Assembly (NCBI GenBank): GCA_036689225.1
Contig: CP144768.1
Coordinates: 95,306-127,305, forward strand
Length of the DNA stretch: 32,000 bases
Reading direction: 5' to 3'
Source of the DNA: Candidatus Saccharimonadota bacterium
Lineage (GTDB): Bacteria; Pseudomonadota; Gammaproteobacteria; Enterobacterales; Enterobacteriaceae
Positions 12,353 to 32,000 of the stretch are shown here, piece by piece. The first letter of the stretch is position 1, and each line of letters starts with the position of its first letter. Under the pieces are notes generated by a model. It saw nothing but the letters and a program-made list of their open reading frames with translations. It was not told the DNA's origin and did not search any database. The position numbers and the translations under genes were made by a program.

Positions 12353-13273
12353 ATGAAAATTATAAATAATGTTGCTATATTTTTTGGTGGTAATTCTTCT
12401 GAAAGAAATATTTCTATAGAATCTGGTTATTCTATTTTTAGAATTTTATTAAAAAAAAAAATAAAAGTTTTTCCTGTAGATTTAAAATATTTTTCTTTAA
12501 ATGATTTTTTGAAAAAAAAAATAGATAAAGTTTTTATAGCATTACATGGAAAAATAGGAGAAAATGGAAATATACAAGGTTTTTTAGATTTTTTAAATAT
12601 TTCTTATACTGGAAGTGGAGTTTTTACTTCATCTTTATGTATAAATAAATATAATACTAAAAAATTTTTAAGTATATATAATATAAATGTATTACCTGAT
12701 TTTCTTTTAAAAAAAAATATAATTATTAAGAATAATTTTTTTAGATTATATAAAAAAATTTTATTTAAATTTAATGTTCCTTTTATATTAAAACCTAATG
12801 ATCATGGATCAAGTATAGGTTTAAATTTAATAAATAATTTTATTGATTTTAAAAATTATTTTAATAAAAATATTAATTTTTTTAATGATTTTATAGTAGA
12901 AAAATATATTTTTGGTGATGAATATACTGTTGCTATATTAGATGGTAAAATTTTATGTCCAATTAATATTAAATTTAATAATAAAATTTTTGATTATTAT
13001 ACAAAATATAAAAATATTAATAATTTTTCTTATTCTAATAATATTAAAATAAATATTAAAAATAAATTGATTGATATATCTAAAAATATATGAAAAATTT
13101 TAAATTGTAAAGGTTGTGTAAGAATAGATTATATTATAGATAAATTTAATAATATATGGTTTTTAGAATTAAATACTATTCCTGGAATGACTAATACTAG
13201 TTTAGTTCCAATTTGTGCTAAATTTTCTAATATTAGTTATTCTAAATTAATATTAAAAATTTTATATTGTTAA
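12353..13273 (+). CDS. ddl: D-alanine--D-alanine ligase
   Basis: '[19 protein letters not shown]', '[19 protein letters not shown]', '[13 protein letters not shown]', 'GDEYTVAIL' and, after TGA 13091, '[10 protein letters not shown]...[18 protein letters not shown]' match Ddl. The product is 306 aa, the same as E. coli DdlB. It ends at TAA 13271-13273. Confidence 0.92.
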
Positions 13274-13563
13274 TTTATAATTTTAATTTTTTTTATTTTT
13301 GGATAGTTTATTTTTTTTATTATTTTTTTATTTTTTTTAATTAAGTATTTTTTTATATTTTTGTTATTAGTTTTTATATATATATTATTTTTTTTTATAT
13401 TTATTATTTTATATTTTTTATTATTTTTTTTTAATAAAATATTGTTTATTTTTTTATTAATTTTTTTTATTAGTTTACTTTTTAATATTATTGAATATAA
13501 ATTACTTTTTTTTTTAAGATTATTAATTATTTTTTTAAATAATTTTGGTTTTTTATTTTTCAT
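13270..13563 (-). CDS. Hypothetical 97-aa Lys/Asn/Ile-rich basic protein (possibly a spurious ORF in a poly-T scar)
   Basis: The ORF runs from ATG 13563 to TAA 13270-13272, antisense to its flanking genes. No motif is recognisable. The plus strand here is strongly T-rich, as over real minus-strand genes in this window, but that bias alone also generates such ORFs. Confidence 0.2.
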
Positions 13564-26421: not shown

Positions 26422-27771
26422 TTAAAAATTTATATAATTTGGATATCTTGGAAAAGGAATAACATCTTTTATATTTTTCATTTTAGTAATATACATTAAT
26501 AATCTTTCTATTCCTAAACCAAAACCACTATGTGGAATAGTACCATATTTTCTTAAATCTCTATATCATCAATATTTTTTTTTATTTAATTTTTTTTTTT
26601 TTATATTAATATCTAATAATTTTATATTTTCTTCTCTTTCTGAACCACCTATTATTTCTCCTACATTTGGTAAAATTATATCCATACATGATACTGTTTT
26701 ATTATTTTTGTTTAATTTCATATAAAATGGTTTTATATTTTTTGGATAGTTTGTAATAATTATAGGTAATTTAAAATATTTTTTTGTTAAATATTTTTCT
26801 ATTTCTGAAGAAAAATCCATACCTCAAATTATATTTTCTTTAAATATTTTTTCTTTTTTTTTTATTATTTTAAATATTTCTTTATATTTTATTTGTATAA
26901 AATTTTTGTCTATTATATTTAATAAATATTTATTTTTTTTATTTTTTATATATTTAAATATAAATTCTAAATCATTATAATTTTTTTTTGTTATTTTTTT
27001 TACACAATATGATAATATATTTTTTGATATTTTTATTATTTTGTTTATTTTAGCTAATACTATTTCTATTTCTAACATTAAAAATTCTGCTAAATGTTTA
27101 TTAGTATTTGAATTTTCTGCTCTAAATATTGGACCTATATTATATACTTTAGATAATGAACATGCATATGTTTCTAAATTTAATTGTCCTGATACAGTTA
27201 AATATGTTTTTTTATTAAAAAAATTTTTATTTTTTATTTCGAACATTTTACTATTACCTTCTGTATCTAAAGAAGTAATAATTGGTGTTGTTATTAAATA
27301 AAATTTTTTTTTTTGTAAATATTTATGAATATTATATATTAATGTATTTCTTATTCTAATTATTGATTCTATTAATGATGTTCTAGATCTTAAGTGTGAA
27401 TTTTTTCTTAAATATTCTAATGAATGATATTTTGCACTTATAGGATATTTTTTTTGATTAGAAATTTTTCCTAAAATTTTTATTTTAGTTGCATATATTT
27501 CTTTTTTTTTATTTTTTTTATTAATTTTAATTTTTCCATTAATTTTTAATGTTCATCCTGTATTTATTTTAAAAATATTTTTGTAATTTTTAATATATTT
27601 TTTTTTTATAATTATTTGAATAGGATTAATACATGAACCATCTTTTATATCTATAAAAAATATATTTATTTTTGAATATCTTATAGTTTTTACTCATCCA
27701 TATATTTTTATTATTTTATTTTTTTTTATTTTTTTTTTTTTATGTATTTTATTTATAGAAATATAATTCAT
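26422..27771 (-). CDS. asnS: Asparagine--tRNA ligase
   Basis: One frame runs from ATG 27771 through several TGA codons. 'IYGW(TGA)VKTIR', '[41 protein letters not shown]', 'W(TGA)[12 protein letters not shown]', '[11 protein letters not shown]', '[11 protein letters not shown]', 'W(TGA)W(TGA)[22 protein letters not shown]' and 'VIPFPRYP' match AsnRS. TAA at 26422-26424 gives 449 aa. Confidence 0.95.
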
Positions 27772-27788
27772 ATTTTTTCTCTTTTAAA

Positions 27789-28526
27789 TTATATATTAAT
27801 TATTTTATATTTTTTTAATCATATACATTTATTATTTTTTTTTTTAATATATTTTAAATATTTTATATGATTTTTAATATATTTTTTTTTTATTGTTTTT
27901 TTTTCGTTTTTATTTAAAATTATATTTTTATTATATTTTTTTTTTTTAGTTTTTATAATTATGTTTTTTTTTTTTATAAAATTAATTTTATTTTGTTTTC
28001 TTGTCATATTTAGATATACTATAGTTAATAATTTAGCATCTATTAATGCTCCATGTTTTTTTCTTTTTGATATATCTATATTATATCTTTTACATAATGC
28101 ATTTAAATTATTTTTTTTTCCTGGAAATAATTTTCTTGCTATTAATAATGTATCTGTAATTTTACATATTTTTTTTATATTTTTAATTTTATGATTTATT
28201 AATTTTAATTCATATTCTATAAATTTAATATCAAAATTTGCATTATGTATTATTAATTCTTTATTTTTTATAAAATTTATAAGTTTTTGAGCAATATCAT
28301 AAAATATTGGTTTATTTTTTAAAAAATTATTATTAATTCCATGTATTTTATATGCTTTATTATCTATTTTTTTTTTTGGATTTATATAAAAATGTATAAA
28401 ATTATTAGTTATTTTTCTATTTATTAATTCTATTGCTCCTATTTCTATTATTTTGTGTCCAACATAATGATTTTCTATTAAATTAATTCCTGTTGTTTCT
28501 ATATCTAATATAATTTGTTTATTCAT
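27789..28526 (-). CDS. dnaQ: DNA polymerase III epsilon subunit (3'-5' proofreading exonuclease)
   Basis: 'QIILDIETTGIN', 'GHKIIEIGAIE', 'YKIHGI', 'LIIHNANFDIKF', 'NLNALCKRYNID' and 'HGALIDAKLL' match the ExoI-III motifs. TGA 27819-27821 is read through to TAA 27789-27791 (245 aa). It is divergent from rnhA, as in E. coli. Confidence 0.93.
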
Positions 28527-29296: not shown

Positions 29297-30298
29297 ATGA
29301 CTATTAGAATAGGTATAAATGGTTTTGGTAGAATTGGTAGATTAGTATTTCGTAATTCTCAATTTAAAAAAAATATTAAAGTTGTAGCTATTAATGATTT
29401 AATTAAAATTGATTATATGGCTTATATGTTGAAATATGATTCAACACATGGTCAATTTAAAGATAATATTATTATTAAAAATAATAATTTATATGTTAAT
29501 GATAATAAAATATATGTAACTTCTTTTAAAAAACCTAGTGATATTCCTTGAAATAAATTTAATGTTGATGTAGTTATTGAATCTACAGGTATTTTTTTAA
29601 CTAAAGATTTATCTTATGGTCATATTTTAGCTGGAGCTAAATATGTTGTAATGACTGCTCCATCTAAAGATGATACTCCTATGTTTGTAATGGGTATTAA
29701 TCATTATAGTTATAATGGTCAAAGTATTGTTTCTAATGCTTCTTGTACTACTAATTGTTTAGCTCCAATAGTTAAAGTTATACATGATAATTTTAATATT
29801 ATTGAAGCTTTTATGACTACTATACATGCTGTTACTGCAACACAAAAAGTAGTAGATAGTTTTTCTTTAAAAGATTGGAGAGGTGGTAGAAGTGTTTTTG
29901 GAAATATTATTCCTTCTTCTACTGGTGCTGCTAATGCTATAGAACATATAATTCCTGATTTAAAAAATAAAATTACGGGTATGGCTTTTAGAGTACCAGT
30001 TTCTAATGTTTCAGTTATAGATTTAACTGTTAGATTAGATTCTGATGTTACTTATGATAAAATATGTTCTTCTATGTATGAAGCTTCTAAAAGTTATTTA
30101 AATGGTATTTTAGGTATTACATATGATGATGTTGTTTCAAGTGATTTTAATGGTGAAAAATTAGTTTCTATTTTTGATGCAAAATCTACTTTATTATTGA
30201 ATAGTAGGTTTATTAAATTAGTTTCATGATATGATAATGAAACAGCTTATTCTGAAAAAGTATTAGATTTAGCATCTTATATATATTATTATAATTAG
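29297..30298 (+). CDS. gapA: Glyceraldehyde-3-phosphate dehydrogenase A
   Basis: '[15 protein letters not shown]', '[11 protein letters not shown]', '[12 protein letters not shown]', '[10 protein letters not shown]', 'WRGGR', 'IIPSSTGAA', '[16 protein letters not shown]' and 'W(TGA)YDNE' match GapA. The product is 333 aa, ending at TAG 30296-30298. GGGG lies 4 nt upstream of the ATG. Confidence 0.96.
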
Positions 30299-30314
30299 TT
30301 TATTATTTGTACTT

Positions 30315-30370
30315 ATGAATTATTTAATTATATTTTATATATTAATAATTTATTTAATTAAATAATTCAT
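30315..30370. terminator. 16-bp inverted repeat between convergent gapA and the protelomerase gene (candidate bidirectional terminator)
   Basis: Read directly: ATGAATTATTTAATTA (30315-30330) is the exact reverse complement of TAATTAAATAATTCAT (30355-30370), with a 24-nt loop. It sits in the 81-bp gap between two stop codons. The stem is almost entirely A/T, so its function is uncertain. Confidence 0.35.
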
Positions 30371-30379
30371 TTGTATTAT

Positions 30380-31945
30380 TTATTTATTTTCTATTATTTT
30401 TCTTCTTATTATTTTATATCTTCCTTTAATTTTTTTTTGATTTATTTTTTTTGATATAAATTTTATATATTTTTTTATTAATATTGTATTAAATCCAAAT
30501 TTTCTTAATAAATAATTATTTATTAATTGTTCATTATTTTTTAATATTATTTTTTTTGTTATTTCATGTATTTTATATGCATTTTTTCTTTTTATTATTT
30601 TATATAATTTTTTATCTAATTTTAATAATTTTTTATATTTTTTATTTTTATTTTTTTTTGGTTGTCATTTTTTATTAAAATTAATTAATTTAAATTGTTT
30701 ATAATATAATTGACTATTTATATTATTATGACCTAATATTTTATAGAAAAACATATCCTCATCATATTTTTTTCATTTTTTATCTTTTGTAAATCATTTT
30801 TCAAAACATATTCTACTATATATAGATCTTGTGTCTTTAAATGTTCTTTTTTCATTATTAAAAAAGGATTTTGATATTTTATTAAATGTATTTGATAAAT
30901 AATTACTTATTTGATAATTTTTTGATAAATATTTATTTTTTTTTTTTTTTATATTATTTATTATTTTTTTTAATATTTTGTTGTTTCTTATTTTGTTAAT
31001 TTTTTTTATAAATAGTTTTGGTTTACATAATAAATATATATTATATTTTTTTTTATTTTTTATTTTAGCTTGTCCTTTAAATTCTATTTTATAATTTTTA
31101 TTTATTATTTTAAATTTACCTATTTTTATTATTTCTATCATTCTTCTTCCAGATACTGCTGATAATGCAAATGATAAATGTGCTATATTTTTAATATTAT
31201 TAAGTTTAGTATTACTATTTAATATATTAAATATTTCTTGTATGTAATTTTTATAATTTATTAATATAATATTACTTTTTTTATTTTTTAGTTTTTCATA
31301 TGACATTTTTTTTGAAATTAAAAGTTTTCTTTTATCTACTTTTAAATGAAATAATATTTCGTGATTTATTTTTATGTTTTTTATAATTTTTTTAATTTTT
31401 TTACCTTGTTGTATTTTATTAATTATATATTTATTTGATGTATATCATTTTTGATTAATAATATTGTTTAATTCTTTTTTTCATTCAGGAAATTTATTTA
31501 TTGAATATTTTATTATTTTTAAATTATTTTTAGTAGAATATATTTTGATTTTATTAATTTGTTTTATTATATTATTTATAAGTTCTAATTTTTTTAATAA
31601 TTTTTTAAATTCTATATTTATATTTTTTGTATTATTTATTTTATTTATATAATCTATTTCTTTTTTATAATATGAAAAATTTTTTTTTAGATATTTTATT
31701 TTTTTTTTAAAACTATGATGTTTTATATTTAAAAATTGTTTTCTTGATCTAGATATATATGTTATATAACTATTTATTGATAATTTTTTATCTTTTATTT
31801 TTTTTTTAAAATTTATTGCTTCTTTTTTATATAATTTATTTTTTTCTGTTTGTAATATATTTTTTGTTTCTATTTTTTTTATATTTTTATTTAATTTTTT
31901 AATTAATATATTTATATTTTCTTTCATAATTATATATTGTAACAT
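30380..31945 (-). CDS. tel: Protelomerase / telomere resolvase, TelN/TelK (N15-phage) type tyrosine-recombinase-fold enzyme
   Basis: Track ORFs 31481..31945 and 30794..31306 plus flanking sequence form one frame under code 4, with 5 in-frame TGA codons and TAA at 30380-30382 by my hand translation. It gives 521 aa from ATG 31945, or 515 aa from the likelier start ATG 31927 ('MKENINILIKKL'). The blocks 'YISRSRKQF..HHSF', 'NKFPEW', 'INHEILFHL', 'LSFALSAVSGRRMIEI', 'FKGQAK', 'FKDTRSIYSRI' and 'DEDMFFYKILGHNNINSQLYYKQFKLINF' correspond to conserved TelN/TelK blocks as I recall them, with the RxxE, K, R, H and nucleophile Tyr contexts. Confidence 0.88.
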
Positions 31946-32000
31946 ATTTAATAAATATACATATGTATATTTATTAAATATGTTACAATATATAATTATG
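31925..32000. repeat. Perfect palindrome of at least 76 bp (dyad between 31962 and 31963), truncated by the window edge; candidate telomere-resolution site or hairpin-telomere read-through
   Basis: I checked it base by base: position 31925+k is complementary to 32000-k for all 38 pairs, with no mismatch. The core is AATATAC-ATAT-GTATATT. Both candidate start codons of the adjacent protelomerase gene lie in the left arm. Confidence 0.9.

Follow-up and report, generated by a model that had tools for sequence, protein, structure and literature searches.

A phage-type protelomerase and a conserved telomere-like dyad point to a linear, hairpin-ended chromosome in Candidatus Stammera capleta

A protelomerase gene beside a perfect palindrome

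We analyzed a stretch of 32,000 nucleotides (nt) of contig CP144768.1, referred to below as the window, which protein and locus searches assign to Candidatus Stammera capleta, a pectin-degrading gut symbiont of tortoise beetles (cassidine leaf beetles). The right-hand end of the window carries telK, a gene for a protelomerase of the N15/phiKO2 type, and a perfect palindrome from which this gene reads inward. The features of this end are the following.

30380..31927, minus strand: telK, N15/phiKO2-type protelomerase, 515 amino acids (aa) in genetic code 4, assigned from Pfam, TelK 2v6e, TelN, fold and catalytic residues
31928..31945, minus strand: possible N-terminal extension MLQYII of the telK product, from an upstream in-frame ATG
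31925..32000, no strand: perfect palindrome, dyad centre 31962/31963, arms of at least 38 bp, reaching the window end
31937..31962, no strand: candidate telomere core half-site on the telK side, TTGTAACATATTTAATAAATATACAT, 26 bp, ending at the dyad centre

An earlier note, made from the letters of this DNA, had proposed a minus-strand open reading frame (ORF) of 515-521 aa that appears when TGA is read as Trp, and this frame exists. It ends at a TAA at 30380-30382 and has candidate ATG codons at 31945 (521 aa) and 31927 (515 aa), the second of which is the start common to the homologues; the 515-aa protein matches exactly the NCBI protein P0001, encoded on a 268,407-bp contig. The extension MLQYII is probably not translated, because the homologues start at MKENIN or MNKNIN. 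All five Trp codons of telK are in-frame TGA and none is TGG, and two of them (W149 and W385) coincide with Trp columns of the family alignment that never vary, even in the free-living relatives.

The telK product belongs to the TelK/TelN family

All three TelK domains of Pfam are found in the protein above their gathering scores: the catalytic domain PF16684 (ResT-TelK_cat) with 84.1 bits against a cut-off of 27 (E=1.2e-23, profile positions 1-181 of 181), PF20849 (TelK_muzzle) with 48.8 bits against 27 (8.7e-13), and PF20818 (TelK_stirrup) with 29.3 bits against 27 (9.6e-7). The sequence of the TelK crystal structure, 2v6e, is matched over residues 27-497 (E=1.5e-86), and N15 TelN is 33% identical over 512 aa (E=5e-104). 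The TelN blocks that the note had quoted, YMSRARKRF..HHSF, FALAAVSGRRMIEI, FSGQAKK, KDSRAIYARI and DEDVFFMEILGHDDENTQLHYKQFKL, all align as described there. The Arg, Lys, His and Tyr positions expected of a protelomerase are likewise all present, with R262, K288, R367, H400 and Y409 aligned with R275, K300, R383, H416 and Y425 of TelK, which we take to be the published catalytic residues, Y425 being the nucleophile (TelK numbering is the numbering of the 2v6e chain minus an offset of 20 residues).

An AlphaFold2 model built with 18 homologues has a mean predicted local distance difference test score of 89.5. Its best PDB match in Foldseek is the DNA-bound TelK, 2v6e_A (E=1.1e-27, template modelling score 0.72/0.70, 524 aligned columns), followed by TelA (E=4e-8) and ResT (E=2e-5), so that the comparison with the TelK-DNA complex proposed in the note agrees with the profile searches. 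The Stammera protein lacks the final C-terminal domain of about 100 aa that is found in the phage enzymes and ends where that domain begins, whereas the free-living relatives have 616-638 aa and carry this domain, PF22853. From sequence and predicted structure, it is essentially certain that telK encodes a protelomerase of the TelK/TelN family, and the enzyme would be expected to cleave a palindromic target and rejoin it into hairpins.

The dyad contains a conserved telomere core

The palindrome at the end of the window stands far apart from all others in this DNA. The second longest has arms of 14 bp, the longest in 20 shuffled sequences have arms of 9-16 bp, and the expected number of centres with arms of at least 38 bp is 2e-12. 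The note had described telK as starting inside a perfect palindrome of at least 76 bp; the perfect 38-bp arms were recovered, and with the start at 31927 only the start codon lies within the visible arm.

Only the inner 26 bp or so of each arm are conserved, with the consensus TTGTAACATAT(A/T)TA(A/T)AAATATA(C/T)A(T/A). Across 18 chromosome ends from 11 Stammera genomes, the invariant positions counted from the centre are -2, -4 to -7, -9, -17 to -21 and -24/-25. Aligned in register from the centre, the core half-site and the N15 telL half-site agree at 15 of 28 positions, among them the TATAC that adjoins the centre, and only 0.05% of the 28-mers in the window match telL as well. We infer that the core half-site is the binding and cleavage site of TelK, and by analogy with what is known of TelK the cuts would fall at TATA^CAT|ATG^TATA. 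The dyad precedes telK by 35 bp in the window and by 35-100 bp in the Stammera genomes in which it was mapped, with the same order and orientation of site and gene as telRL-telN in N15 and in phiKO2.

Beyond the core of about 26 bp, the right arm (31963-32000) mirrors unique sequence on the telK side. Comparable fold-back overshoots in related records have arms of 29-125 bp, and of 1718 bp in locus L022. The palindrome as a dyad target, as it had been proposed, thus holds for the conserved inner 26 bp of each arm and not for the remainder. The segment 31963-32000 appears to be largely the assembly's copy of the strand returning from a hairpin, or of a replicated junction, rather than a long uncut site. 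We predict that past base 32000 the source record has a short overshoot followed by an N-join and the other arm.

The start codon of telK lies only 35 bp from the dyad centre, which means that its promoter must lie in the telomere itself or in its mirror copy. The expression of telK would then depend on the state of the end, hairpin or replicated junction. A promoter scan around telK gave fewer hits than in shuffled sequences and is uninformative at 89% A+T. A search of the telomere region against PLSDB, asking whether a Stammera plasmid shares these ends, gave no match, possibly owing to the low-complexity filter.

Assemblies end or fold back at the dyad

Assemblies from at least 30 host species end, are joined by a run of N, or fold back at this exact point. 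The sequence NNNNN occurs at the locus in 20 records of the CP1447xx-CP1448xx series; these runs are most likely original contig ends, because the 50-genome comparative preprint curated its chromosomal MEGAHIT contigs and used GC skew to choose the oriC to which they were then rotated. In seven older records (CP024013, CP0439xx) the sequence stops at the 5' end of telK or just inside it. Three independent Logan contigs, assembled from public runs, have their first base 0-10 nt away from the dyad centre, and the contigs of L013, L021 and L027 begin, with MEGAHIT ends, 0-3 nt from it.

Six related genomes (L005, L009, L011, L020, L024 and L036) each contain two fold-back palindromes side by side, mostly with an N-run between them, and each palindrome is a perfect mirror of the subterminal sequence of one arm. 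The terminal 26 bp of the paired palindromes are identical at 25-26 of 26 positions, whereas the next 19 bp agree at only 8-15 of 19. We thus observe, in these six genomes, two termini that share an inverted terminal sequence, while the window itself shows one end. Two self-mirrored sequences do not make a circular junction, which would read arm1-core|core-arm2; they are what results when reads pass round a hairpin or span replicated L-L' and R-R' junctions.

The site lies at the replication terminus and telK is conserved

From left to right across the site, GC skew changes from positive to negative in each of the 23 loci with both arms, and the skew of the window, +0.22, runs toward the site. 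In the records rotated to a skew-derived oriC, the site falls at 0.447-0.491 of the length. This places the site at the replication terminus, where a linear replicon with a central origin should have its ends.

The gene telK is kept in every Stammera genome examined (about 32), and the TelK homologues encoded on Stammera "chromosome" records of 212-314 kb are 44-79% identical. The catalytic residues are intact in all aligned Stammera lineages but one. A crude ratio of nonsynonymous to synonymous substitution rates (dN/dS) against the nearest species is 0.33-0.43 for telK, compared with 0.37-0.64 for gapA and about 0.52 for alaS in the same genomes, which suggests that telK is under housekeeping-like constraint across the clade.

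A probable linear chromosome with hairpin ends

Taken together, these observations make it likely that the Stammera chromosome is a linear duplex with hairpin ends, maintained by a domesticated protelomerase of the N15/phiKO2 type. The enzyme is intact and of the right family, its site is conserved at both ends of several genomes and lies at the skew terminus, and the assemblies end or fold back there. We infer from this the covalently closed ends themselves, the cleavage positions and the enzymatic activity. Replication would start at a central oriC, run to both ends and continue around the hairpins, which would produce inverted-repeat junctions in the form of perfect palindromes. TelK would bind the terminal sequence of about 26 bp on either side of the dyad, make staggered cuts about 3 bp to each side of the centre, and join each strand back to its own complement, so that two hairpin-ended monomers are regained. 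What the window contains would then be one end of the chromosome: gapA, followed by telK, which reads inward from the tip, and finally the telomere.

Observations against this reading and alternative explanations

Several observations weigh against a linear chromosome of this kind. The window shows only one chromosome end, and a single window cannot prove the hairpin-ended chromosome that the note had put forward; its support comes most strongly from the related genomes. Two records pass through the region: L035 (CP043973.1, 9840-9910) runs through a single site with different flanks and no N-join, and L006 (CP144787.1, 9700-10000) goes from ruvC to telK with neither a recognisable dyad nor an N-join. 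These two may be curated joins or true circular forms. Long perfect palindromes in a circle, or head-to-head circular dimers, would give a similar assembly behaviour. Moreover, the lineage of CP144771.1 (L046 10001-11554, protein P0014) encodes a full-length TelK of 517 aa, 50% identical to the window protein, that is substituted at four of the five catalytic positions (equivalents of R275 to K, R383 to I, H416 to Y and Y425 to Q). Its motifs have changed from GRR to GRK, KDTR to KDSI, ILGH to IIGY and YYKQF to YQKKF, and the DEDMFF block is also gone. The same lineage (L046 and Logan contig L047) still folds back, with 115-bp arms, and has an inverted copy of csp at the other contig end. A degenerate TelK together with the same assembly signature implies that the signature alone requires no active enzyme. 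Possible explanations for this lineage are a second, intact allele, a head-to-head circular dimer, or a protection of the telomere that does not depend on catalysis; such a catalysis-independent telomere-protecting role has recently been shown for TelN (PMC12624138).

If the chromosome were circular, telK and the palindrome would be the relic of an N15-like prophage, inert or repurposed, and the breaks would reflect the failure of short-read assemblers at palindromes. Palindromes do disturb assembly, L035 and L006 traverse the region, and the 50-genome study handled the chromosomes as closed, with an oriC set in each record. Nevertheless, a palindrome of 52-76 bp is shorter than 150-nt reads and than the largest MEGAHIT k-mers, so that arm1-palindrome-arm2 should assemble, and six genomes show instead two self-mirrored sequences, one per arm. 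A relic would not retain all catalytic residues and a housekeeping-like constraint across the clade, and no further phage gene is left. An intact enzyme together with its site would linearise a circle in any case, and we consider this explanation improbable. A slightly smaller probability goes to a circular head-to-head dimer, an unresolved replication product in which the palindromes are permanent L-L' and R-R' junctions rather than hairpins. Mutants of N15 telN form dimers of this kind. They would leave the same two self-mirrored junctions in assemblies, and the CP144771.1 enzyme, without the nucleophilic Tyr, both Arg and the His, shows the same signature. However, the window enzyme and those of all other aligned lineages have the full catalytic set, and contigs stopping 0-3 nt from the dyad are more readily explained by tips than by continuous junctions.

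Artefacts of library preparation or assembly (inverted chimeras, adapter read-through, curation joins) that happen to lie in an AT-rich spacer seem to us very unlikely. Traces of such events do occur at the locus. Illumina TruSeq adapter was left at two original contig ends (L019 9795-9830, CP144850.1; L034 1-39, CP043980.1), and several joins lie inside telK instead of at the dyad (L002, L004 and L040). At the end of one record, CP043985.1, about 850 bp of sequence that is GC-rich, not from Stammera and contains a 256-aa ORF (L003 1-855), probably host DNA and looking like a retroelement, are fused to a 5'-truncated telK, which explains the odd N-terminus of protein P0003 (MISHPSETIKQH...). 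Yet about 30 independent samples show the effect at this one locus, across three assembly pipelines (that of the older records, MEGAHIT and Logan), and random artefacts would not keep returning to one orthologous point. A protelomerase gene, a dyad that is conserved and N15-like, and the switch in skew all fall there as well. Residual adapter might be taken to mark physical termini, but only in L019 is it close to the tip (8 nt away); in L034 it lies within telK, and we regard it as weak evidence.

The ends change between genomes

The position of telK beside gapA, rnhA, dnaQ and asnS, as the note described it, is correct for the window, but elsewhere in Stammera the gene lies on the opposite arm or on both arms within terminal inverted repeats (TIRs). 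It converges on gapA in the window and in some 16 records, which is about half, and lies on the opposite aspS-ruvC arm in about 12, where gapA is followed within about 120 bp by its own telomere. The arm differs even among close relatives (77-79% TelK identity). Two independent Logan contigs, one of each type, repeat the arrangement of the corresponding NCBI record.

In several genomes telK lies inside TIRs, whose length ranges from the 26-bp core to about 2 kb. The far contig end of L022 directly overlaps the fold-back, and from there the similarity, interrupted by indels, reaches to within 12 bp of gapA; for this reason, the palindrome of 2 x 1718 bp in this locus was no longer regarded as a pure fold-back artefact and is more likely a real TIR. 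Inverted repeats were sought by self-comparison with megablast at a minimum of 88% identity, low-stringency blastn being swamped by AT-rich noise. In L046, L017, L021, L030 and L032, the region downstream of telK is repeated in inverted orientation at the end of the arm that lacks telK. The repeated region includes the csp gene in L046, L017 and L030, and in L046 a Logan unitig of 2,270 bp runs exactly from the tip to csp. Shorter inverted duplications are present in L002 and L040. One end may occasionally be copied onto the other, giving two copies of telK, one of which would later be lost, and in this way the gene would move between arms.

Two genes next to the ends show signs of change. In CP144769.1 (L002 11522-12487), gapA lies beside a chromosome end and is 60% identical to the window gapA, with a crude dN/dS of about 1.1, while the other genes of this genome are 77-89% identical; this may reflect relaxed selection on, or decay of, a subtelomeric gene. 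On the non-gapA arm, ruvC is the last or second-to-last gene (L046 9030-9517; L048 1603-2079; L049 2001-2480), and in L046 it is split into two ORFs of 45 and 129 aa, possibly a pseudogene.

As for the origin of the system, it is conceivable, though we hold this only tentatively and think it somewhat less probable than not, that an ancestor of Stammera captured an N15-like protelomerase and its tel site at the terminus, that linearity replaced dimer resolution by XerCD/dif and final decatenation, with loss of those genes, and that the ends have since been dynamic, with TIRs from 26 bp to about 2 kb and telK moving between arms. The names xerC, xerD, ftsK, parC, sbcC and recB do not occur in the supplement of the 50-genome preprint, which does not list those genes.

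Other genes and features of the window

The window is 86% A+T (14% GC), and TGA must be read as Trp: in-frame TGA and TGG occur in a ratio of 70:2 over its called genes. All recognized genes besides telK are of the enterobacterial housekeeping type, namely hslU, a DsrC/TusE-like gene, a mur-ddl cluster, secA, degP, dnaX, htpG, recA, alaS, a porin gene, asnS, dnaQ, rnhA and gapA. As the note had remarked, telK is the only phage gene in the 32 kb, and none other was found in the 10-kb flanks of related loci. The companions of an N15-like prophage (repA, partition, repressor and structural genes) were not found around telK, where only housekeeping genes lie. Two further features border telK on its inner side.

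29297..30298, plus strand: gapA, last housekeeping gene of the arm, convergent with telK, with Pfam domains Gp_dh_N and Gp_dh_C and synteny across loci
30309..30376, no strand: stem-loop GAATTATTTAA...TTAAATAATTC, AT-only, in the 81-bp gapA-telK spacer

The stem-loop has a predicted RNA folding energy of -18.1 kcal/mol (z = -5.2), and none of 200 shuffled sequences was equally stable. Its motif recurs near the chromosome ends in the flanks of L021, L022, L026, L027 and L030. It is probably a bidirectional terminator between the two convergent genes; a terminator scan based on G+C content found none.

Three ORFs of the window have no family match. The ORF at 13270-13563 (minus strand) encodes a Lys-rich protein of 97 aa between ddl and secA. 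Those at 27742-28302 and 31374-31652 (both plus strand) encode Phe/Ile-rich products antisense to dnaQ and telK, respectively, and are most likely chance ORFs of an AT-rich genome.

Significance and comparison with known systems

We found no literature that links Stammera to a protelomerase, a telomere, a hairpin or a linear chromosome of its own, in a search that lay outside the genome papers of 2017 and 2020; the main comparative study of Stammera does not use the words protelomerase, telomere, hairpin or linear chromosome. An N15-type system on the Stammera chromosome would be a natural, clade-wide variant of a known mechanism and is apparently unreported. To our knowledge, hairpin-ended linear chromosomes are present in only a few bacterial lineages (Borrelia, Agrobacterium and some phytoplasmas), and an N15-type system has been placed on a cellular chromosome only as a laboratory construct in E. 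coli. We know of no linear bacterial chromosome smaller than that of Stammera, at 0.21-0.31 Mb in the records compared here, if it is linear.

If correct, this would show a phage enzyme domesticated into the core machinery of chromosome maintenance, and it would offer a natural setting in which to ask whether a shrinking genome can shed its terminus functions once it is linear. About 50 deposited Stammera genomes, rotated and N-joined as circles, would need another representation, and some of the deposited records would carry fold-back duplications, adapter or host DNA at their true ends. A linear chromosome is directly testable, because the beetles are in culture.

The nearest known systems are N15 TelN with telRL and phiKO2 TelK, which are of the same family and have the same domain order (muzzle, catalytic, stirrup), and in which a dyad site directly precedes the gene, in the orientation also found in Stammera. 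The dyad lies about 190 bp from the start codon in the phages, compared with the 35-100 bp of Stammera, and the central GCGC is replaced by ATAT in Stammera. In N15 and phiKO2 the protelomerase gene is followed by an anti-repressor gene, whereas in Stammera the phage context is absent and the replicon is the only chromosome of the cell; PF22853, the last C-terminal domain of the phage and free-living relatives, is also missing. Furthermore, the two ends of Stammera need not derive from one telRL site, unlike those of N15, and some species have TIRs up to about 2 kb.

Borrelia with ResT and Agrobacterium with TelA likewise have cellular replicons with hairpin telomeres and an internal origin, resolved after replication by enzymes of a related fold. 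These enzymes are, however, of different subfamilies with a much lower similarity, and the Stammera enzyme is of the enterobacterial phage branch. The linear replicon of Agrobacterium is a secondary chromosome (chromid), as outlined in PMC13293297. Candidatus Phytoplasma mali has a linear chromosome of 602 kb with TIRs and with covalently closed hairpin ends demonstrated experimentally, and no convincing resolvase, the candidates being 12-14% identical (Kube et al. 2008, PMC2459194). It resembles Stammera in its small, very AT-rich chromosome, its restriction to hosts and its TIRs. It differs in being a Mollicute with large TIRs, and its hairpins are established, whereas in Stammera the resolvase is unambiguous and the hairpins are predicted.

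Of the closest functional parallels, which include the Borrelia, Agrobacterium and Phytoplasma mali replicons, one is artificial. As relayed in PMC12624138, Cui et al. (2007, EMBO Rep) obtained a viable E. coli with a hairpin-ended linear genome by means of TelN and its site in the terminus, and linearity made dif/XerCD dispensable. The same type of enzyme acts at the terminus there as would act in Stammera, yet the E. coli genome is a construct, while the Stammera arrangement is natural and is found in the most divergent lineages sampled.

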